From: a virus
Lineage: Duplodnaviria > Heunggongvirae > Uroviricota > Caudoviricetes
Direction: 5' to 3' (one strand)
DNA length: 8,016 nucleotides
Virus record (IMG/VR): IMGVR_UViG_2684622582_000005
Coordinates: 1-8,016 of that record
In this document: positions 1 through 8,016 of the stretch, piece by piece
Numbering within the stretch: position 1 is the first letter of the stretch
Layout: every line of letters begins with the position of its first letter
Made by a program: the position numbers and the translations under genes
Notes under the pieces: generated by a model
Seen by the model: only the letters and a program-made list of their open reading frames with translations
The model's database searches: none
What the model was told of the DNA's origin: nothing

Positions 1-1284
1 CTACTTTTTCGCCTCTGCAACCACTTTGCTACCCACGCCGCGGTTATTGTATTCCCACATGCGGTTGTAGTTAGTGTCATTCAGATTGCGCTGTACTTCG
101 TCGTTATCATCAACGTTGCCAGTATTACCCGCAAACGGACGATTGGAAATCACCGCATCGGCCCACGGTTTCGCCGTGTTAAAACCTTCGTTGATGGCGC
201 TATCACGGATCACTACCTGACCGTTGGTATTGGCATCAACATCCAGCGAGCGGCCCAGTTGCGCCACGCCATCACCGGAAGCATTGAAACGGCTGTTTAC
301 GGCGAGGAAACCGTAGTAAATGTTGGACAGCGTAGCCGGTGCAAACACATACGCTTCTTGCTGGGTACGGGAGTTCACCACGCGGAATTCGGTGTTATCG
401 AACACCACTGCGCCGCGACCAGAAACGATATCCACATCCCCTTCAATATAGCTGTTGGTCACCAGCGTACGCGGCTGACGATTCGTTTCCAGACGGTTCT
501 GCACACCGCTGTTGGTGACAAAGAAGGTGTTCTGACGACCGAGAATGTTGACGTTATTGATCTGCACTTTGTCGCCATCAGTACGCAGTGCCACCGCCGG
601 ATGGTTACCCGCATCTACGCTATCGCCCAGCGTGTTTTCGATGGTCAGGTTTTGCAGTTGCAGGCCATTGTTTTGTGACCAGAAGACCGCAGAGCAGAGA
701 ACACCGATACTGTCGCTGCGTTTACTCTGGCAGCTATCGTACATATACCACGCCGGTTTACCTGGCATATATTTGCCGCGCGGGTTGACGTCGTGACGCC
801 AGTCGGCAGGGCTCATGCCACCATCAAGGGAAAGCCCAATCTTCACATCAATCGGTTTTTCACCTGTACCGTATAGAGTAATTCCACCCGGAGCGGCAGG
901 GACATACACCGTTCCCTGATACTCACCAGGCATCACGGCAATATACTGGCGCTTGTTGGTACGCTTGATAATTGCCGCATCTACCGCCGCCTGAATCGTG
1001 GTATGCGTTACACCTTGAGTACCCGCCGGGCCGACAACAAAGTCAGGTTGCGCAGGCAGGGTAATCGGGGAAGGATTCCACGCTGCCGCACCTGGTGTCA
1101 GGGATGCAAAATAGTGTTGAGCATCGAAATTCTGCGCTTCTTTTGCCGACAGAATCGGGCGCGAAGAGGTACCAGGCGCGGTTTGATCAGAAGGACGTTG
1201 ATCGGGCGGTGTTGAGCTACAGGCGGTCAGCGTCACGCCAAAAGCCAATGCCAGCGCCAGACGGGAAACTGAAAATGTGTTCAC
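1..1284 (-). CDS. ybhC: YbhC, putative outer-membrane lipoprotein (pectinesterase-like / acyl-CoA thioesterase family); host gene flanking attB-lambda
   Basis: 427-aa ORF spanning 1..1284 on the minus strand. N-terminus MNTFSVSRLALALAFGVTLTAC has a signal peptide and lipobox (LTAC). Length and sequence match my memory of E. coli YbhC, the gene on the gal side of attB-lambda. Start ATG at 1284, stop at 1..3. Confidence 0.9.
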   Translation of the reverse strand: MNTFSVSRLALALAFGVTLTACSSTPPDQRPSDQTAPGTSSRPILSAKEAQNFDAQHYFASLTPGAAAWNPSPITLPAQPDFVVGPAGTQGVTHTTIQAAVDAAIIKRTNKRQYIAVMPGEYQGTVYVPAAPGGITLYGTGEKPIDVKIGLSLDGGMSPADWRHDVNPRGKYMPGKPAWYMYDSCQSKRSDSIGVLCSAVFWSQNNGLQLQNLTIENTLGDSVDAGNHPAVALRTDGDKVQINNVNILGRQNTFFVTNSGVQNRLETNRQPRTLVTNSYIEGDVDIVSGRGAVVFDNTEFRVVNSRTQQEAYVFAPATLSNIYYGFLAVNSRFNASGDGVAQLGRSLDVDANTNGQVVIRDSAINEGFNTAKPWADAVISNRPFAGNTGNVDDNDEVQRNLNDTNYNRMWEYNNRGVGSKVVAEAKK

Positions 1285-1315
1285 AGGTTGCTCCGGGCTA
1301 TGAAATAGAAAAATG

Positions 1316-1421
1316 AATCCGTTGAAGCCTGCTTTTTTATACTAAGTTGGCATTATAAAAAAGCATTGCTTATCAATTTGTTGCAACGAACAGGTCACTA
1401 TTAGTCAAAATAAAATCATTA
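1316..1421. other. attL: attL (B-O-P') of lambda-type site-specific integration; 15-bp core at 1331..1345
   Basis: Host-side B arm TTGAAGCCT, then core GCTTTTTTATACTAA (1331..1345), then P'-arm sequence GTTGGCATTATAAAAAAGCATTGCTTATCAATTTGTTGCAACGAACAGGTCACTAT... as in lambda attP, running directly into the int stop codon. Confidence 0.88.
1371..1421. promoter_or_regulatory. P'-arm protein-binding sites: IHF H' site (TATCAATTTGTTG, 1371..1383) and three tandem Int arm-type sites (about 1391..1421)
   Basis: TATCAATTTGTTG fits the IHF consensus WATCAANNNNTTR. CAGGTCACTAT / TAGTCAAAAT / AAATCATTAT resemble the Int arm-type consensus (C/A)AGTCACTAT and sit where P'1-P'3 lie in lambda. Confidence 0.7.
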
Positions 1422-2345
1422 TTTGATTTCAATTTTGTCCCACTCCCTGCCTCTGTCATCACGATACTGTGATGCCATGGTGTCCGACTTATGCCCGAGA
1501 AGATGTTGAGCAAACTTATCGCTTATCTGCTTCTCATAGAGTCTTGCAGACAAACTGCGCAACTCGTGAAAGGTAGGCGGATCCCCTTCGAAGGAAAGAC
1601 CTGATGCTTTTCGTGCGCGCATAAAATACTTTACACCTGTTTTGCTTTGCTCGACATAAAGATATCCATCTACGATATCAGACCACTTCATTTCGCATAA
1701 ATCACCAACTCGCTGCCCGGTAACAACAGCCAGTTCCATTGCAAGTCTGAGCCAACATGGTGATGATTCTGCTGCTTGATAAATTTTCAGGTATTCGTCA
1801 GCCGTAAGTCTTGATCTCCTTACCTCTGATTTTGCAGCGCGAGTGGCAGCGACCGGGTTTATTGTTATATGGCCTTCAGCTATTGCCTCTCGGAATGCAT
1901 CGCTCAGTGTTGATCTGATTAACTTGGCTGACGCCGCTTTGCCCTCGTCTATGTATCCATTGAGCATTGCCGCAATTTCTTTTGTGGTGATGTCTTCAAG
2001 TGGAGCATCAGGCAGCCCCCTCCTTATTGCTTTAATTTTGCTCATGTAATTTATGAGTGTCTTCTGCTTGATTCCTCTGCTGGCGAGGATTTTTTCGTAG
2101 CGATCAAGCCATGAATGTAACGTAACAGAATTATCACTGTTGATTCTCGCTGTCAGAGGCTTGTGTTTGTGTCCTGAAAATAACTCAATGTTGGCCTGTA
2201 TTGCTTCAGTGATTGCTATCCTCCTGTCTCGGCCTAAACCAAACTCTTTACCCGTCCTTGGGTCCCTGTAGCAGTAATATCCATTGTTTCTTATATAAAG
2301 GTTAGGGGGTAAATCCCGGCGCTCATGACTTCGCCTTCTTCCCAT
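1419..2345 (-). CDS. int: Lambda-type tyrosine integrase Int with an in-frame 48-residue internal deletion (308 aa instead of 356 aa); probably inactive
   Basis: N-terminus MGRRRSHERRDLPPNLYIRNNGYYCYRDPRTGKEFGLGRD and C-terminus ...LLGHKSDTMASQYRDDRGREWDKIEIK match lambda Int. The residue count places R212 and K235 at their lambda positions and maps H260/R263/H285/Y294 onto lambda H308/R311/H333/Y342, which fits a loss of residues 240-287. The lambda BamHI site (GGATCC, about 1580) is retained. Confidence 0.88.
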   Translation of the reverse strand: MGRRRSHERRDLPPNLYIRNNGYYCYRDPRTGKEFGLGRDRRIAITEAIQANIELFSGHKHKPLTARINSDNSVTLHSWLDRYEKILASRGIKQKTLINYMSKIKAIRRGLPDAPLEDITTKEIAAMLNGYIDEGKAASAKLIRSTLSDAFREAIAEGHITINPVAATRAAKSEVRRSRLTADEYLKIYQAAESSPCWLRLAMELAVVTGQRVGDLCEMKWSDIVDGYLYVEQSKTGVKYFMRARKASGLSFEGDPPTFHELRSLSARLYEKQISDKFAQHLLGHKSDTMASQYRDDRGREWDKIEIK

Positions 2346-2541
2346 TTCTGATCCTCTTCAAAAGGCTACCTGTTACTGGTCGATTTAAGTCAACCTTTAC
2401 CGCTGATTCGTGGAACAGATACTCTCTTCCATCCTTAACTGGAGGAGGGAATATCCTGCATTCGCGCACCCATCGACGAACTGTTTCAAGGCTTCTTGGG
2501 CGTCGCTGGCGAGCGTTCCACTCCTGAAGTGTCAAGTACAT
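2323..2541 (-). CDS. xis: Excisionase Xis (72 aa)
   Basis: MYLTLQEWNARQRRPRSLETVRRWVRECRIFPPPVKDGREYLFHESAVKVDLNRPVTGSLLKRIRNGKKAKS matches lambda Xis. ATG at 2541; the 3' end overlaps the int start by 23 nt. The 102-aa ORF in the track is an upstream extension in the same frame. Confidence 0.92.
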   Translation of the reverse strand: MYLTLQEWNARQRRPRSLETVRRWVRECRIFPPPVKDGREYLFHESAVKVDLNRPVTGSLLKRIRNGKKAKS

Positions 2542-2562
2542 CGCAAAGTCTCCGCAATTACA

Positions 2563-2589
2563 CGCAAGAAAAAGCCGCATTGATGCGGC
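2563..2589 (-). terminator. Predicted rho-independent terminator (minus strand) between the 114-aa ORF and xis
   Basis: Read on the minus strand: GCCGCATCAATGCGGC (perfect 6-bp stem, 4-nt loop) followed by TTTTTCTTG. Confidence 0.6.
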
Positions 2590-2658
2590 GATGGTAGGTC
2601 TGGATATCATTGAGCAATGAACAGGCCTCATCGAGTGTGAGGCGGTGTTATTTCATGG

Positions 2659-3003
2659 TTAGTCCTTGCGTAGCTCGCTGATTCTTCTGTAAGTCTCTGG
2701 TGCTTTGTTTCCGTGTATCTTCATTTCAGACTTCAACAGAGCAACGAGGGAATCCCATTCGTTGAGGATTCCTTTGAATGCCGGAACGCGCTTTGCAACC
2801 TTGTTGAATGAATCTCTGATTTCTGGAATCTGCTCAACAAGTGCAACGCATCGTCTGAAATCGGCTGCGTCATGGGGAGCGCCGAAGTGATGACCATAGA
2901 TATTCTTTTTCAGTCCACATGCGATTGAGGCAAGAGTTGCGCTACTGATGCCAACATCGCCAGTCGATTGCCATTTCAAAACCTTCATAGCCAAATCTGA
3001 CAT
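2659..3003 (-). CDS. Hypothetical protein, 114 aa; unrecognised accessory gene immediately upstream of xis
   Basis: Intact ORF with ATG at 3003, preceded by GGAGA 6 nt upstream. Co-oriented with the operon. I do not recognise a family from the sequence (MSDLAMKVLKWQSTGDVGISS...YGHHFGAPHDAADFRRC...RRISELRKD). Confidence 0.6.
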   Translation of the reverse strand: MSDLAMKVLKWQSTGDVGISSATLASIACGLKKNIYGHHFGAPHDAADFRRCVALVEQIPEIRDSFNKVAKRVPAFKGILNEWDSLVALLKSEMKIHGNKAPETYRRISELRKD

Positions 3004-3016
3004 TTCTTGTCTCCAA

Positions 3017-3039
3017 TAAAAAAACCGCCATCAGGCGGC
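3017..3039 (-). terminator. Predicted rho-independent terminator (minus strand) downstream of the 59-aa zinc-ribbon gene
   Basis: Read on the minus strand: GCCGCC-TGAT-GGCGG hairpin followed by TTTTTTTA. It ends about 14 nt before the ATG of the 114-aa ORF. Confidence 0.65.
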
Positions 3040-3104
3040 TTGGTGTTCTTTCAGTTCTTCAATTCGAATATTGGTTACATTGTTTTCATATATGAATAAA
3101 TAAA

Positions 3105-3284
3105 TTAGCTTTTTTCGTTGCCTTCGCGTTCTTTATTAATTTTGACAAAATCGTTTTTACCACGCTCTCCAAATGCGTCTTTAGAGTCGTTGTATCCGCA
3201 ATCGCAGCACACATAATCATCAGACCATCCACGCATTGTTTTTTCTTTTGCAATATTTCCAGAACCGCATTTTGGACAAGACAT
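3105..3284 (-). CDS. Small zinc-ribbon protein (59 aa), CPKCG...CCDCG; possible Ea8.5-like
   Basis: ATG at 3284 preceded by GGAGG with a 7-nt spacer; product MSCPKCGSGNIAKEKTMRGWSDDYVCCDCGYNDSK... The track's 70-aa version starts at an upstream TTG with no obvious RBS. Two CxxC pairs; paralogous in pattern to the 65-aa ORF at 4457..4654. Confidence 0.55.
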   Translation of the reverse strand: MSCPKCGSGNIAKEKTMRGWSDDYVCCDCGYNDSKDAFGERGKNDFVKINKEREGNEKS

Positions 3285-3380
3285 ATCACTACCTCCAAAG
3301 CATGAGAGAGATGACAACGTAACATTGATTGGAGATTAACAATAGATTGCTGATGTAAAAGATATGTATAAGCTTAGCTA

Positions 3381-4169
3381 TCAAAGGGGAGGTTCTGGTA
3401 GTTGCATCCAGTCGGTTACATTGCGACTCTGTGTTTCGAAAAATTCATCACCATTGCGGACAATATCGAAAAACTCTCCGTCTCGATATTGCGCATAAAG
3501 AACGAATGCGCCATCACATAAAATAATTACGTGCTGACCATCATCTGGCATTCGCTCACTACAGCTTATCCAACCATCCGGAGTTACCGGATAGTTGCCC
3601 GATAGTGCATTCTGCTCCAGTGATGCTTTTACAAAACACGCGGCCTGAACTATTACGTCATGAATCCAGCGCAAATCAGCATCGCGATCTTTCTTTTTCA
3701 TTTTTTCGCCACTTAAAGCCTGGCTTATGTGGCTGCGTACCAGGTCTTCATGTAACGCCTTCGCATCCTCAATGGTGAAACCACCAGGCAGGCGAGCCGG
3801 GGTTACATGAGGGTTGCCTTCCCCCTGACTCTGAAGCATGGTGGCGCGGCAGGCGTTCCAGCCTTCATCAAAACCGACTATGCCATTATTTAAAGACGGA
3901 CGAGCATCTGGCACCACCAGTACTGGCTTGGCTATATATAGCGGCTGAACATACCAACCCTTTGATAACCAACTGTCAGCAATGTTTTTACTCCTCGTTA
4001 TTGCCGGAATACCTAAGCCATTGTCTGAATGAAGCCACGCCACCGGCTCTGCTTCCAGCGATGCCAGAGCAATTTCATAAGCCCGACGCTCAATATTGTC
4101 TCGGACGTCCAGGCTGCCTATGCGCTCTTTGATTTCTTTAATCAGTTCTTTGTCGGTGAAAGTGGTCAT
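3381..4169 (-). CDS. Ea22-like protein with a DUF551-like C-terminal region (262 aa)
   Basis: Likely start is ATG at 4169 (MTTFTDKELIKEIK...), with RBS AAGGAGAG and stop-start coupling (TGAtATG) to the upstream ORF. The C-terminus (...WISCSERMPDDGQHVIILCDG...VTDWMQLPEPPL) resembles the W...PEPP ending I associate with DUF551 prophage proteins. The track's 292-aa version extends upstream across the neighbouring ORF. Confidence 0.65.
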   Translation of the reverse strand: MTTFTDKELIKEIKERIGSLDVRDNIERRAYEIALASLEAEPVAWLHSDNGLGIPAITRSKNIADSWLSKGWYVQPLYIAKPVLVVPDARPSLNNGIVGFDEGWNACRATMLQSQGEGNPHVTPARLPGGFTIEDAKALHEDLVRSHISQALSGEKMKKKDRDADLRWIHDVIVQAACFVKASLEQNALSGNYPVTPDGWISCSERMPDDGQHVIILCDGAFVLYAQYRDGEFFDIVRNGDEFFETQSRNVTDWMQLPEPPL

Positions 4170-4182
4170 ATCACTCTCCTTT
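4167..4182. repeat. 16-nt junction repeat CATATCACTCTCCTTT (copy 1) at the Ea22-like stop / downstream-gene start
   Basis: Identical 16-mer at 4167..4182 and 4652..4667. On the minus strand it reads AAAGGAGAGTGATATG, i.e. RBS plus TGA stop plus ATG start. A degenerate third copy (CATATCACTACCTCC) lies at 3282..3296. Confidence 0.85.
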
Positions 4183-4446
4183 TCCCTGAAGCATAGCCGC
4201 GCGGCAGGCATTCCAGCCTGTAGTGTAATATTGCGCATCATGCCAGCTCGTTTGTACATTTGAGTACGCTTTTTCCTCTGTCATCGGCTCGGGTATTGAT
4301 GGCGCTTGCTTTGCTTCCAGTGATGCCAGTGCAATCCGTGCCAGTTCTTCCGCTTCTTCTGCTGGCAGTACAACGTTGCTACCCGGTCCGTATGTTTCTC
4401 GCCACTGCTTGATTGTCAGCAGTCGATCTTTGGTAATAGTGGTCAT
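4171..4446 (-). CDS. Hypothetical protein (91 aa); truncated paralog of the N-terminal module of the 262-aa Ea22-like protein
   Basis: MTTITKDRL... parallels MTTFTDKEL...; shares the IALASLEA and GWNACRA(A/T)MLQ segments with the 262-aa protein. Ends ...KGE with TGA one nt before the next ATG. Confidence 0.5.
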   Translation of the reverse strand: MTTITKDRLLTIKQWRETYGPGSNVVLPAEEAEELARIALASLEAKQAPSIPEPMTEEKAYSNVQTSWHDAQYYTTGWNACRAAMLQGKGE

Positions 4447-4456
4447 TTGTTATGCC

Positions 4457-4654
4457 TCAATACACAAAATCTGTTTTAAATTCATGGTTACATTCTGGAC
4501 AGCATGTTTCGTAACCTTTTATTTCTTCACATGCCTGTTTTGCTCCAGAAAATTCCCAGAAATCAGCATCGCAAAGCAGATCGAAATTGTGGCCGCATTT
4601 TGGGCATTCAGTATCAAGTGATAAACTCCAGTAAGCAGGTGTGTTTTTGTCCAT
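4457..4654 (-). CDS. Small zinc-ribbon protein (65 aa), CPKCG...CCPEC; possible Ea8.5-like
   Basis: ATG at 4654 preceded by AAGGAGAG; product MDKNTPAYWSLSLDTECPKCGHNFDLLCDADFWEFSGAKQACEEIKGYETCCPECNHEFKTDFVY. It follows an Ea22-like gene with the TGAtATG junction, the position ea8.5 occupies after ea22 in lambda. Confidence 0.55.
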   Translation of the reverse strand: MDKNTPAYWSLSLDTECPKCGHNFDLLCDADFWEFSGAKQACEEIKGYETCCPECNHEFKTDFVY

Positions 4655-4667
4655 ATCACTCTCCTTT
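4652..4667. repeat. 16-nt junction repeat CATATCACTCTCCTTT (copy 2)
   Basis: See copy 1; exact match read directly from the sequence. Confidence 0.85.
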
Positions 4668-5081
4668 GATGCGAATGCCTGCGGCGCGTGGCACATTAAC
4701 TTCCACGATGCGCACTGTTGGTTTGTACATCTCAATCGCTGTCAGCCAGTCAGCTCCTGTCATGCGCTTTTCCGCATCGCCATTAGTCCACTGAACCGGT
4801 ACACCAATAGCCTTCATCGCGATTTCTATTTCCCCGGCAATGGCGCTTTTTCCGCAACCAGTAAAACCAGAAACAACGACAAGAACTTCACCTTTGGCTG
4901 GTTTTATTTCCCGAGCTTCCAGTTCTGCAATGCGCTTTTTGTCTGCTTCCCGTTCATCCAGCAGTGCCAGCACAATCGATGGTGTTACCAGCTCATGGAA
5001 AAGGTCCGCGTCAAATCCCCAGTTGTCATGCATTGCCTGCTCTGCCGCTTCACGCAGTGCCTGAGAGTTAATTTCGCTCAC
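4656..5081 (-). CDS. Ea22-like protein (141 aa) with an internal Walker-A-like motif (GFTGCGKS)
   Basis: GTG start at 5081 overlapping the orf73 stop (GTGA), preceded by AGAGAGG. The N-terminus MSEINSQALREAAEQAMHD... and the ...IRIKGE C-terminus resemble the conserved ends of the ead/Ea22-like family as I recall them. The central segment VLVVVSGFTGCGKSAIAGE (nt 4845..4868 encode GFTGCGKS) fits GxxxxGK[ST]. Confidence 0.6.
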   Translation of the reverse strand: MSEINSQALREAAEQAMHDNWGFDADLFHELVTPSIVLALLDEREADKKRIAELEAREIKPAKGEVLVVVSGFTGCGKSAIAGEIEIAMKAIGVPVQWTNGDAEKRMTGADWLTAIEMYKPTVRIVEVNVPRAAGIRIKGE

Positions 5082-5299
5082 TTCGAACCTCTCTGTTTAC
5101 TGATAAGCTCCAGATCCTCCTGGCAACTTGCACAAGTCCGACAACCCTGAACGATCAGGCGTCTTCGTTCATCTATCGGATCGCCACACTCACAACAATG
5201 AGTGGCAGATACAGCCTGGTGGTTCAGACGACGCATTTTTATTGCTGTATTGCGCTGTAATTCTTCGATTTCTGATGCTGAATCAATGATGTCTGCCAT
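5078..5299 (-). CDS. TraR/DksA-family C4 zinc-finger protein (73 aa), orf73-like
   Basis: MADIIDSASEIEELQRNTAIKMRRLNHQAVSATHCCECGDPIDERRRLIVQGCRTCASCQEDLE... has two CxxC pairs about 17 residues apart, the same length as F-plasmid TraR (73 aa), and sits at the orf73 position of lambdoid exo-xis regions. Confidence 0.75.
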   Translation of the reverse strand: MADIIDSASEIEELQRNTAIKMRRLNHQAVSATHCCECGDPIDERRRLIVQGCRTCASCQEDLELISKQRGSK

Positions 5300-5353
5300 C
5301 TTCCATTAATCCCTGAATTGTTGGTTAATACGCTTGAGGGTGAATGCGAACAA

Positions 5354-5375
5354 TAAAAAAGGAGCCTGTAGCTCC
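5354..5375 (-). terminator. Predicted rho-independent terminator (minus strand) between the orf61-like gene and orf73
   Basis: Read on the minus strand: GGAGC-TACAG-GCTCC hairpin followed by TTTTTTAT, about 22 nt downstream of the orf61-like stop. Confidence 0.6.
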
Positions 5376-5397
5376 CTGATGATTTTGCTTTTCATGT

Positions 5398-5679
5398 TCA
5401 CCGTTCCTTAAAAACGCCGTTTAACATGCCGATCGCCAGGCTTAAATGAGTCGGTGTGAATCCCATCAGCGTTACCGTTTCGCGGTGCTTCTTCAGTACG
5501 CTACGGCAAATGTCATCGACGTTTTTATCCGGAAACTGCTGTCTGGCTTTTTTGATTTCAGAATTAGCCTGACGGGCAATACTGCGAAGGGCGTTTTCCT
5601 GCTGAGGTGTCACTGAACAAGCCCCATGTCGACAAGCATAAGCACACAGAATATGAAGCCCGCGGCCAGAAAAATGCAT
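5398..5679 (-). CDS. orf61-like hypothetical protein (93 aa as drawn; true start uncertain)
   Basis: ORF in the position of lambda orf61, ATG at 5679, 10 nt after the orf63 stop. An internal GTG (VTPQQ...) would give 71 aa. Called by position and operon context only. Confidence 0.5.
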   Translation of the reverse strand: MHFSGRGLHILCAYACRHGACSVTPQQENALRSIARQANSEIKKARQQFPDKNVDDICRSVLKKHRETVTLMGFTPTHLSLAIGMLNGVFKER

Positions 5680-5689
5680 TCAGTGGTTG

Positions 5690-5881
5690 TCATACCTGGT
5701 CTCTCTCATCTGCTTCTGCTTTCGCCACCATCATTTCCAGCTTTTGTGAAAGGGATGTGGCTAACGTATGAAATTCTTCGTCTGTTTCTACTGGTATTGG
5801 CACAAACCTGACTCCAATTTGAGCAAGGCTATGTGCCATCTCAATACTCGTTCTTAACTCAACAGGAGATGCTTTGTGCAT
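5690..5881 (-). CDS. orf63: Orf63 (63 aa), exo-xis region protein
   Basis: 63-aa [66 protein letters not shown] at the expected position; length and sequence match my memory of lambda Orf63. Confidence 0.8.
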   Translation of the reverse strand: MHKASPVELRTSIEMAHSLAQIGVRFVPIPVETDEEFHTLATSLSQKLEMMVAKAEADERDQV

Positions 5882-6036
5882 ACCGCCTCCCGTTTATTAT
5901 TTATCTTCTCAGCCAGCCGCTGTGCTTTCAGTGGATTTCTGATAACAGAAAGGCCGGGAAATACCCAGCCTCGCTTTGTAACGGAGTAGACGAAAGTGAT
6001 CGCGCCTACCCGGATATTATCGTGAGGATGCGTCAT
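5854..6036 (-). CDS. orf60a: Orf60a (60 aa), exo-xis region protein
   Basis: Start at the ATG overlapping the exo stop (ATGA at 6033..6036) gives the 60-aa product [40 protein letters not shown]... The track's 62-aa version starts 2 codons upstream. Confidence 0.8.
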
Positions 6037-6713
6037 CGCCATTGCTCCCCAAATACAAAACCAATTTCAGCCAGTGCCTCGTCCATTTTTTCGATGAACT
6101 CCGGCACCATCTCGTCAAAACTCGCTATGTACTTTTCATCCCGCTCAACCACGACATAATGCAGGCCTTCACGCTTCATACGCGGGTCATAGTTGGCAAA
6201 GTACCAGGCATCTTTTCGCGTCACCCACATGCTGTACTGCACCTGGGCCATGTAAGCCGACTTTATGGCCTCGAAACCACCGAGCCTGAACTTCATGAAA
6301 TCCCGGGAGGTAAACGGGCATTTCAGCTCAAGGCCGTTGCCGTCACTGCATAAACCATCGGGAGAGCAGGCGGTGCGCATACTTTCGTCGCGATAGATGA
6401 TCGGGGATTCAGTAACATTCACGCCGGAAGTGAATTCAAACAGGGTTCTGGCGTCGTTCTCATACTGTTTTCCCCACGCCAGCGCCTTAGCATTAACTTC
6501 CGGAGCCACACCGGTGCAAACCTCAGCCAGCAGGGTGTGGAAGTAGGACATTTTCATGTCAGGCCACTTCTTTCCTGAGCGGGGCTTTGCTATCACGTTG
6601 TGAACTTCTGAAGCGGTGATGACGCCGAGCCGTAATTTGTGCCATGCATCATCCCCCTGTTCGACAGCTCTCACGTCGATCCCGGTACGCTGCAGGATAA
6701 TGTCCGGTGTCAT
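6033..6713 (-). CDS. exo: Lambda exonuclease (Red-alpha), 226 aa
   Basis: [65 protein letters not shown]... matches lambda Exo over its full length. Start overlaps the bet stop (ATGA). Confidence 0.95.
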
Positions 6714-7495
6714 GCTGCCACCTTCTGCTCAGTGGCTTTCTGTTTCAGGAATCCAAGAGCTTTCACTGCTTCGGCCTGTGTCAGTTCTGACGATGCGCGA
6801 ATGTCGCGGCGAAATATCTGGGAACAGAGCGGCAATAAGTCGTCATCCCATGTTTTATCCAGGGCGATTAGCAGAGTGTTAATCTCCTGCATGGTTTCAT
6901 CGTTAACCGGAGTGATGTCGCGTTCCGGCTGACGTTCTACAGTGTATGCGGTATTTTCGACAATGCGCTCGGCTTCATCCTTGTCATAGATACCAGCAAA
7001 TCCGAAGGCCAGACGGGCACACTGAATCATGGCTTTATGACGTAACATCCGTTTGGGATGCGACTGCCACGGCCCCGTGATTTCTCTGCCTTCGCGGGTT
7101 TTGAATGGTTCGCGGCGGCATTCATCCATCCACTCGGTAACGCAGATCGGATGATTACGGTCCTTGCGGTAAATCCGGCATGTGCAGGATTCATTGTCCT
7201 GCTCAAAGTCCATGCCATCAAACTGCTGGTTTTCATTGATGATACGGGACCAGCCATCAACGCCCACCACCGGAACGATGCCGTTCTGCTTATCAGGGAA
7301 GGCGTAAATTTCTTTCGTCCACGGATTAAGGCCGTACTGGTTGGCGACGATCAACAATGCGATGAACTGCGCATCGCTGGCATCACCTTTAAATGCCGTC
7401 TGGCGAAGAGTGGTGATCAGTTCCTGTGGGTCGACAGAATCCATGCCGACACGTTCAGCCAGCTTCCCTGCCAGCGTTGCGAGTGCTGTACTCAT
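6710..7495 (-). CDS. bet: Bet (Red-beta) single-strand annealing protein, 261 aa
   Basis: [69 protein letters not shown]... matches lambda Bet over its full length. Confidence 0.95.
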
Positions 7496-7500
7496 CCGTT

Positions 7501-7797
7501 TTATACCTCTGAATCAATATCAAACTGGTGGTGAGCAATGGTTTCAACCATGTACCGGATGTGTTCTGCCATGCGCTCCTGAAACTCAACATCGTCATCA
7601 AACGCACGGGTAATGGCTTTTTTGCTGGCCCCGTGGCGTTGCAAATGATCGATGCATAGCGATTCAAACAGGTGCTGGGGCAGGCCTTTTTCCATGTCGT
7701 CTGCCAGTTCTGCCTCTTTCTCTTCACGGGCGATCTGCTGGTAGTGACGCGCCCAGCTCTGAGCCTCAAGACGATCCTGAATGTAATAAGCGTTCAT
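7501..7797 (-). CDS. gam: Gam (GamS form, 98 aa), RecBCD inhibitor
   Basis: [60 protein letters not shown]... matches lambda Gam from its internal Met. An in-frame TAA 10 codons upstream stops the ORF from extending to the 138-aa long form. Confidence 0.9.
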
Positions 7798-7851
7798 GGC
7801 TGAACTCCTGAAAATGGCTGTGAAAATATCGCCCGCGAAATGCCAGGCTGA

Positions 7852-8016
7852 TTAGGAAAACAGGAAAGGGGGGTAGTGAATGCTTTTGCTTGATCTCAGT
7901 TTCTGTATTAATATCCATTTTTTATAAGCGTCGACGGCCTCACGAAACATCTTTTCATCGCCAATAAAAGTGGCGATAGTGAATTTAGTCTGGATAGCCA
8001 TAATTGTTTGATCCAT
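7852..8016 (-). CDS. kil: Kil (host-killing / cell-division inhibitor), 54 aa here versus 47 aa in lambda
   Basis: The reverse complement of the window end reads ATGGATCAAACAATTATGGCTATCCAG..., giving [47 protein letters not shown], then YPPFLFS before TAA at 7852..7854. The ATG sits exactly at the window edge. Confidence 0.7.

Follow-up and report, generated by a model that had tools for sequence, protein, structure and literature searches.

A 16-nt gene junction associated with cassette boundaries in the exo-xis region of lambda-like prophages

The exo-xis region of Shiga-toxin phages influences the lysis-lysogeny decision. In lambda, the equivalent interval contains ea22, ea8.5, and a predicted 55-aa open reading frame (ORF). 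Ea22 variants have mosaic structures, the DUF551 domain is portable (PMC10834534), and passages in PMC2327257 and PMC3233612, citing Clark et al. 2001, indicate that short conserved flanking sequences can mediate the exchange of lambdoid modules. The relative parts played by short boundary sequences and by illegitimate recombination in the mosaicism of temperate phages are an unsettled question. We analyzed an 8,016-nt stretch of a lambda-like prophage (IMG/VR record IMGVR_UViG_2684622582_000005, positions 1 to 8,016; referred to here as the window), in which five genes lie between orf73 and a 114-aa ORF (3105-5081). Two pairs of these genes are joined by an identical 16-nt sequence, here called the junction. 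The junction is found at gene joints in many other phages and homology breakpoints fall on it, making it a concrete and widespread example that bears on that question.

The segment from 3105 to 5081 is probably a hypervariable accessory ('ea') segment, that is, a mosaic of five cistrons that are unrelated or related only in some of their modules, and not a duplicated array. Taken by itself, this is an ordinary lambdoid mosaic of the exo-xis kind, and the junction is an example of the known idea of conserved boundary sequences. What we add is small: a link between the junction and the '+GE' ending of Ea22 proteins, and an example of a boundary sequence that is quantified. The junction and the tail variants could serve as anchors for cataloguing accessory ('dark matter') prophage cassettes, including those of Shiga-toxin phages.

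The locus resembles the exo-xis region of lambda and of Shiga-toxin phages in its operon position and its flanks (orf73, orf61, orf63, orf60a, exo, and bet are ~97% identical to those of lambda), and in a first variable gene that has an Ea22 N-terminus and an AGIRIKGE tail. At the DNA level, identity to lambda is ~97% over 4947-7183 (Ea22 N-terminus to bet) and 1331-2589 (xis-int). The interval between them (2590-4946), which is made up of the 114-aa gene and the variable block (3079-4946), is mostly without homology to lambda, the exceptions being 3019-3078 and 4653-4683 (Table 1). The sequence-only reading of this DNA had placed only ea22 and ea8.5 in lambda; both are there, together with the predicted 55-aa ORF, and these compare with five cistrons in the window, where no homologue of ea8.5 is recognizable by sequence. 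The window's Ea22-like gene differs from that of lambda in its C-module, which has a Walker-A-like motif. The ends of the two genes also differ. Lambda ea22 ends in ...GGCATTCGCATCAAAGGAGAGTGA / GCTGGCATTCGCATCAAAGGAGAGTGA, then GATC, and the junction is broken right after the TGA, 191 nt before ea8.5.

The junction shares two properties with the conserved boundary or linker sequences described by Susskind and Botstein and by Clark et al. 2001: it is a short common sequence at the joints of unrelated modules, and homology breakpoints coincide with it. It differs from them in that the linker doubles as a translational signal and as coding sequence of the upstream gene. There is also a likeness to integron cassettes, in that promoterless cistrons of the same orientation are gained and lost as units at a recurring junction, but the junction of the window is a direct repeat within coding sequence. 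An integron-like array was considered and rejected. The cassette ends have no attC-like imperfect palindrome (inverted repeats are short and far apart), an Rfam search of the window gave no match to known RNA elements, and the window encodes no dedicated cassette recombinase, its only integrase being a lambda-type Int that acts at attP. Among the 'ea' genes of P22 (Eag, Eai), the counterpart in the window is the 59-aa gene, which corresponds to the RefSeq Eag protein. The modules of the window belong to the large phage families PHROG 250, 60, 2945, and 4173.

The junction in the window and in other phages

The 16-mer AAAGGAGAGTGATATG occurs exactly twice in the window, with the two copies 485 nt apart (Table 1). 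As the sequence-only reading had noted, the 141-aa and 65-aa genes meet at one copy, and the 91-aa and 262-aa genes at the other. The two exact copies are beyond chance expectation: shuffled sequences had a mean of 0.09 matches with 3 mismatches allowed, and the pair was recovered by self-BLAST (expectation value, E = 0.007). In both copies, the codons AAA-GGA-GAG (K-G-E) precede the TGA stop, and a Shine-Dalgarno sequence, AAGGAG, lies inside the junction 6 nt before the ATG.

The junction has the features of a translational coupler. With AAGGAG 6 nt ahead of its ATG, a gene has a strong ribosome-binding site, and a stop codon one base before a start codon is the classic arrangement for coupling by termination and reinitiation. 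The 16-mer would be a compact intercistronic coupler, consisting of a Shine-Dalgarno sequence, the stop of the upstream gene, and the start of the next gene one base on, at which the terminating ribosome would re-initiate on the next cistron.

The degenerate third copy of the junction that had been proposed upstream of the 59-aa gene is present (3282-3296), but as the start site of that gene only. It is not a stop/start joint and does not mark a cassette boundary. The element is invariant upstream of all 17 copies of the Eag gene that were compared, and the cassette boundary is instead at 3412.

The junction is common at gene joints in other phages. Exact matches to the 16-mer were found in at least 120 contigs of IMG/VR. 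In nearly all of the matches listed, a long ORF ends at the TGA of the junction and another begins at the ATG. Homologues of pL-operon genes are on the same strand and in syntenic order at 83 of the 120 loci listed, with recombination genes upstream and xis/int downstream. The same sequence is present at joints with unrelated flanks, which places the junction among the conserved boundary or linker sequences.

The genes on either side of the junction are varied. Among the matches listed, there are approximately 20 clusters of upstream C-termini and approximately 27 clusters of downstream genes, in 58 pairings, and a single Ea22-type upstream cluster has 10 or more different downstream genes as partners. 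Ea22-like proteins, with several kinds of C-terminal domain, and a Mom-like protein are among the upstream partners. Ten partner cassettes were compared to Pfam; nine had no family and one had a weak Mom-like match. The ending also differs between homologues, as in a 69-aa Cys-rich protein that ends ...LRINK before its stop codon in one locus (L009) and has a homologue in another (L039) that ends ...LRSNKGE at the junction.

A second sample consisted of 80 loci that were picked by the Ea22 N-terminus, independently of the 16-mer. Many of the Ea22-like genes in this sample end in GCTGGCATTCGCATCAAAGGAGAGTGA followed by TATG, GATG, or CGTG, and others have ATGA overlaps or further kinds of joint. 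All matches with up to 3 mismatches were on the coding strand at gene joints. Throughout the sample, K-G-E is encoded by AAA-GGA-GAG, with no synonymous codons. A crude gene-chain census of junction types was too noisy for quantitative use.

A block made up of an Ea22-like gene, the junction, the 65-aa gene, and an ALASLEA-type DUF551 gene is also present at locations outside the exo-xis slot. In a prophage in the chromosome of E. coli NR379 (L249), it is between the replication gene P/DUF1064 and terminase, and it is also found in the 97-kb plasmid p266917_2_02 (L250). Of 2,035 matching places, 309 are on plasmids, and the block occurs on plasmids of ~95-100 kb. The identical junction precedes the 65-aa gene, following an Ea22-like gene, in these two loci and in one other (L045).

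We also found the 24-nt tail of lambda ea22 in assemblies of unrelated taxa, among them Streptomyces, Bacillus, Prevotella, Shewanella, and Pseudomonas (L211-L248). The majority of the contigs match phage lambda at ~100% identity, and several have a length of ~48.5 kb and low coverage. They are lambda DNA that contaminates the assemblies, and the scan of genome contigs with the 24-nt tail is therefore without taxonomic information.

Homology breakpoints and the case for recombination

Homology between related loci ends at or very near the junction. We compared flanks pairwise among 107 distinct junction instances. In the 152 pairs that are alike in the left flank only, homology ends a median of 2 nt past the ATG (6 nt or less in 90% of pairs). 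In the 425 pairs that are alike in the right flank only, it ends upstream of the 16-mer at a median distance of 10 nt (21 nt or less in 90%). Similarly, within the window, 17 of the 21 high-scoring segment pairs (HSPs) over the N-module of the 262-aa gene have position 4169, where the ATG of that gene begins, as their exact end, and the ends of HSPs from other loci pile up at 4446-4463 (91-aa gene start and 65-aa gene stop) and at 4651-4660 (the first junction copy). The breakpoints coincide with the junction, as those of a boundary sequence do, and the junction is associated with cassette boundaries in related phages.

The closest relative that we found differs from the window by a unit that is bounded by the junction. 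This prophage (L125) occupies the same ybhC site, and in it the order is the 141-aa gene (96% identical), one junction (AAAGGAGAGTGAGATG), an MSTFTDK...DUF551 gene, Eag, the 114-aa gene, xis, and int. Two HSPs of the window, 5082-4652 and 4182-4042, abut in L125, and their overlap is exactly the 16-nt junction (L125 positions 4415-4430). The window and L125 are thus distinguished by a 485-bp indel that is bounded by direct repeats of the junction.

Based on the many gene pairs, the breakpoints, and the indel relative to L125, the comparisons support the shuffling of genes at conserved junctions that the sequence-only reading had proposed, and we infer that recombination is the cause of the shuffled joints. 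The coupler is often extended upstream by a conserved tail that is found on unrelated lambdoid accessory genes and comes in several flavors (...RAAGIRI, ...WNACRAAML(Q/H)G, ...RAAAAG, and ...HLRT). Together, the junction and tail would provide a tract of identity of 16 to ~40 nt for homologous or short-homology recombination, either of the Red-beta/Erf/RecT type or by RecA. Exchange inside the junction would add, remove, or swap whole cistrons, and since it would regenerate an intact coupled joint, such events would be selectively tolerated.

Several points weigh against recombination at the junction. The first is the length of the shared sequence. For efficient pairing, Red-beta needs a segment of at least 23-27 bp and RecA one of at least 31-34 bp (PMC3945230). 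The two copies in the window share 16 nt, which is below these published minima, and the median perfect tract between unrelated junction instances is only 18 nt. Among pairs of junctions whose flanks are otherwise unrelated, the perfect tract is at least 23 nt in 24.8% and at least 31 nt in 6.8%. The second point is the comparison to L125. Its junction has a G for T at position 13 and the N-module downstream is only 91% identical to that of the window, indicating that L125 is not a simple deletion derivative. Third, breakpoints at gene boundaries are also expected if joints are random and illegitimate and are then filtered by selection. Many joints in the same regions are of other types, for example ATGA overlaps, and their coexistence with the junction indicates that the junction is not required for mosaicism. 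Lastly, the sample was anchored on the 16-mer and is biased toward finding the 16-mer at joints. By our estimate, a 16-mer would turn up by chance some tens of times in a collection of this size, and because 37 of the 120 loci listed have no lambda-type marker, some of the matches may be due to chance.

An alternative is that the junction is kept only as a near-optimal combination of ribosome-binding site, stop, and start, with illegitimate joints filtered by selection and no role in recombination. We consider this explanation rather unlikely, although it is the best of the alternatives. The sequence is almost wholly functional signal (AAGGAG, TGA, ATG), and illegitimate recombination is the mainstream alternative in the literature; the short length of the shared tract and the other types of joint in the same regions are also as this explanation would have them. 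However, the identity is not limited to the signal. It reaches unconstrained positions and tails of 10-25 nt upstream, which come in few discrete flavors, and unrelated proteins have the same tail codons with no synonymous variation. In addition, hundreds of pairs lose homology within 2-10 nt of the junction, direct repeats of the junction stand at both ends of the indel that separates the window from L125, and lambda keeps the left 12-13 nt of the junction and diverges exactly after the TGA. All of these argue against selection for expression signals alone.

A broader form of the recombination model can be put forward only tentatively, and we think it improbable as a whole. The K-G-E-stop-N-ATG element, together with W-x-x-x-R-A-A, would be a selected, recombinase-independent docking connector with which phages and phage-plasmids swap promoterless accessory cistrons, in register, via their own Red/Erf/RecT annealing proteins, and would be more than a ribosome-binding site. 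If this were true, there would be an integron-like cassette economy without an integrase across lambdoid phages, P22-like phages, and phage-plasmids, and the hinge (IALASLEA) and tail (WNACRAAML) motifs described below would be in-frame connectors for the shuffling of protein domains.

The '+GE' ending, tails, and internal motifs

The C-terminus of Ea22 proteins may be a read-out of the ribosome-binding site of the next gene. The four Ea22 proteins compared in PMC7093339 (lambda, 933W, Phi24B, and P27) all end in '+GE', the significance of which is given there as unknown. Because the Shine-Dalgarno sequence of the junction is inside the last three codons, any protein encoded upstream is forced to end K-G-E. 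The ribosome-binding site of the next gene would account for the published ending, an explanation that is simple and testable.

The variation in the tail of the 141-aa protein is consistent with this. In its C-module, 18 homologues have 42 invariant columns up to R132 and none in the tail, which varies among IRIKGE, IKVEAE, INLETGGE, and IKREG. For two of the divergent tails, the DNA has a purine-rich, Shine-Dalgarno-like run (GGAGG; GGGGGTGAG) before a next start that abuts or overlaps. The tail of the 141-aa protein is predicted to be disordered (low-confidence model). Based on the variable tail peptide, the persisting Shine-Dalgarno-like run, and the predicted disorder, the constraint on the tail appears to be at the level of nucleotides rather than peptide.

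It is very unlikely that the (W-x-x-x-)R-A-A...K-G-E tail acts as a peptide at the C-terminus, such as a tag for turnover or for binding of a partner, that a set of early proteins have in common, and that the identity in DNA is a by-product of selection on the protein. Such a peptide could be read from the common '+GE' ending of all four published Ea22 proteins and from a longer consensus, W-(N/K/D)-x-x-R-A-A-x(2-5)-K-G-E, that is found on many genes. The W-x-x-x-R-A-A part of the tail does look like a conserved peptide and may have some role at the protein level; this part fits less well with a constraint on nucleotides only. Against a functional peptide, the tail is the least conserved part of the C-module family at the amino-acid level while the Shine-Dalgarno-like run persists, and the tail is found on unrelated proteins, in addition to its predicted disorder. 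The invariant codons for K-G-E in the sample picked by the Ea22 N-terminus also argue against selection on the peptide. The GGA codon for glycine is rare in E. coli.

Duplication of cassettes, as proposed in the sequence-only reading, was not borne out by self-alignment, protein comparisons, or PHROG families, none of which revealed paralogous gene pairs. Comparison of 2600-5400 to itself found three short common motifs only: the 16-mer, a 28-nt hinge (IALASLEA), and a 34-45-nt tail (GWNACRAxMLQ). No array was detected in a search for tandem arrays, and BLASTP detected no similarity between the 141-aa and 262-aa proteins. The 141-aa protein has in common with the 91-aa and 262-aa proteins only the tail motif and, at comparable positions, a hinge motif. 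The 65-aa and 59-aa zinc ribbons, which had been described as having a common CPKCG...CCxxC layout, share the 5-residue CPKCG knuckle and nothing beyond it, and are in different PHROG families. An in-situ tandem duplication of an Ea22-like plus zinc-ribbon unit, followed by divergence, is the least credible of the explanations: a long gene followed by a small Cys-rich gene is a superficially repeating pattern, and identical junctions follow the 141-aa and 91-aa genes, with hinge and tail motifs in common, but the junctions are at non-equivalent places (141-aa gene to zinc ribbon; 91-aa gene to 262-aa gene), and the relatives of each module are in different phages, with different boundaries.

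The internal motifs coincide with places at which homology ends within genes. HSP ends accumulate at these hinge and tail motifs, at 4308-4316 (more than 40 HSP starts), 4937-4973, 3806, and 3832, and the hinge of the 91-aa gene coincides with intragenic mosaic breakpoints. The internal breakpoints of the 262-aa gene are at 3521-3547, 3597-3599, 3806, 3832, and 4035-4053, and those at 3806 and 3832 flank the 3' end of its internal copy of the tail motif.

There is an inverted repeat just upstream of the two junction copies (4198-4213 and 4673-4688; 16 nt, 15 of 16 complementary). The N-A-C-R-A codons of one tail are the reverse complement of the R-A-A-G-I codons of the other. The full palindrome, 'NACRAAGI', was in none of the loci compared, and the inverted repeat may be a coincidence of the CGCGCG core.

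The five genes and the surrounding locus

All five ORFs that had been proposed between orf73 and the 114-aa gene are present (Table 1). They are part of the leftward early (pL) operon, in the left arm of a lambda-like prophage that is adjacent to ybhC. The order of genes on the minus strand is gam, bet, exo, orf60a (DUF1317), orf63 (DUF1382), an orf61-like ORF, orf73 (TraR/DksA zinc finger), the five variable ORFs, the 114-aa ORF, xis, int, and ybhC. The modules are real coding sequence, with ratios of nonsynonymous to synonymous polymorphism (pN/pS) of 0.04-0.21; the Eag gene had too few differences for an estimate.

Table 1. Positions of genes, junctions, and motifs in the window.
Feature	Position	Strand	Description
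141-aa Ead/Ea22-like gene	4656-5081	minus	GTG start, overlapping the orf73 stop; Ea22 N-terminus (aa 1-~45), coiled-coil hinge, ~70-aa C-module, tail PRAAGIRIKGE
31-nt island (AGIRIKGE tail and stop)	4653-4683	minus	93.5% identical to lambda; only homology to the 3' two-thirds of ea22
Junction copy 1	4652-4667	minus	141-aa gene end (KGE, TGA), one spacer base, 65-aa gene start (ATG)
485-bp unit	4183-4667	minus	one junction copy plus the 65-aa and 91-aa genes; absent from L125
65-aa CxxC...CxxC zinc-ribbon gene	4457-4654	minus	phrog_4173, E = 2.7e-27
91-aa gene	4171-4446	minus	N-module MTTITKD...IALASLEA (aa 1-46) and short C-part ending GWNACRAAMLQGKGE
Hinge motif I-A-L-A-S-L-E-A	4308-4335	minus	paralogous copies at 4046-4073 (89%) and 4949-4976 (weak, 68%)
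Junction copy 2, identical to copy 1	4167-4182	minus	91-aa gene end (KGE, TGA), one base, 262-aa gene start (ATG)
262-aa DUF551 gene	3381-4169	minus	N-module MTTFTDK...IALASLEA, middle with GWNACRATMLQSQGE, C-terminal DUF551; end LPEPPL
Internal tail-motif copy GWNACRATMLQSQGE	3820-3864	minus	80% identity over 45 nt to 4175-4219 (tail of the 91-aa gene)
Relic or variant junction GGAG[GT]AGTGATATG	3282-3296	minus	13 junction bases and a 2-nt insertion; ribosome-binding site and start of the Eag gene
59-aa zinc-ribbon gene, RefSeq 'Eag protein'	3105-3284	minus	phrog_2945, E = 5.3e-31, aa 1-58
Conserved 60-nt module	3019-3078	minus	between the Eag gene and the 114-aa gene; terminator-like hairpin 3041-3022

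The 141-aa protein is a member of the Ea22 family. It matched Pfam PF13935 (Ead_Ea22) over aa 2-57 with 48.5 bits (cut-off of 27) and is 86% identical to residues 1-51 of lambda Ea22. The pN/pS was 0.11 for the gene and 0.06 for its C-module, which is conserved among 18 homologues whose N-termini vary. The C-module has a Walker-A-like sequence, GFTGCGKS, that is invariant in these homologues. Matches to P-loop families were all below threshold (APS_kinase, E = 0.03; AAA_16, E = 0.043; PDB, E of at least 0.08). The structure model has low confidence (mean predicted local distance difference test score, pLDDT, of 58.7), and in it the C-module has a predicted topology of beta-alpha-beta-alpha-beta. 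The C-module (4659-4900, aa ~60-132) is near-invariant in E. coli, Citrobacter, Klebsiella, Cronobacter, and Salmonella, on proteins with very different N-termini, and some records of its homologues have the name 'ATP-binding protein'.

The 262-aa gene had been called Ea22-like and is instead a DUF551 gene. The protein matched Pfam PF04448 (DUF551) over aa 199-261 with 68.8 bits (cut-off of 22), and neither it nor the 91-aa protein matched PF13935 at E of 0.1 or less. It belongs to phrog_60 (E = 2.5e-55), and a search of solved structures gave no match to it. Matches to phrog_60, phrog_3323, and phrog_660, families of the N-module, are common to the 91-aa and 262-aa proteins, and the N-module of the 91-aa gene had a pN/pS of 0.21 (32 homologues). 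The ending in K-G-E, which had been assigned to both putative Ea22-like genes and the fragment, is found in the 141-aa (...IRIKGE) and 91-aa (...QGKGE) proteins but not in the 262-aa protein (...PEPPL).

The two small Cys-rich proteins are of different kinds. The 65-aa protein matched only zinc-ribbon families in Pfam, all below threshold, and its gene had the lowest pN/pS (0.04). The 59-aa protein is a P22-type Eag protein: its homologue, within DNA that is 99.6% identical, is annotated as 'Eag protein' (WP_001277762.1). The match of the 59-aa protein to Lar (PF14354, Lar_restr_allev) had 23.0 bits, below the cut-off of 28.6, covered only the zinc-knuckle part, and is flagged 'weak' in the precomputed results. 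This sub-threshold resemblance to a zinc-ribbon family for restriction alleviation is a hint only. At the sequence level, the zinc-ribbon ORFs and the 114-aa ORF showed no homology to Ea8.5; the best tblastn match of lambda Ea8.5 to the window had E = 1.1.

The combination of five genes is rare. No copy of the whole array, defined as at least 80% of 2600-5400 or of 4140-4700, was found among 5,426 complete E. coli genomes or among 50,697 phage records. Look-up of exact proteins in a large collection found the array in 6 contigs, all in the same prophage context, and the exact 91-aa protein is on record in only 6 contigs, each with the full array.

The integrase gene of the window is shortened. 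It encodes 308 aa (1419-2345, minus strand), compared to 356 at full length. Relative to lambda and L125, there is an in-frame deletion of 141 nt, with the joint near 1630-1632 and the loss of approximately residues 236-282, and the prophage may therefore be unable to excise. The same shortened allele is in GCA_001268365.1 (CXYT01000002.1), and sister contigs with the same array have full-length Int.

The orf61-like ORF (5398-5679, minus strand) can be read as 93 aa in the window, compared to the 61 aa annotated in lambda. At this position, RefSeq relatives have a 71-aa 'cell division protein ZapA'; the match to Pfam ZapA is weak (E = 0.014).

The 60-nt module (3019-3078) is a conserved boundary sequence of a second kind. 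Its identity to lambda, where it is just upstream of xis, is 100%, and it recurs in approximately 20 or more loci whose flanks are unrelated. Compared to lambda, the 114-aa gene looks to have been inserted between this module and xis.

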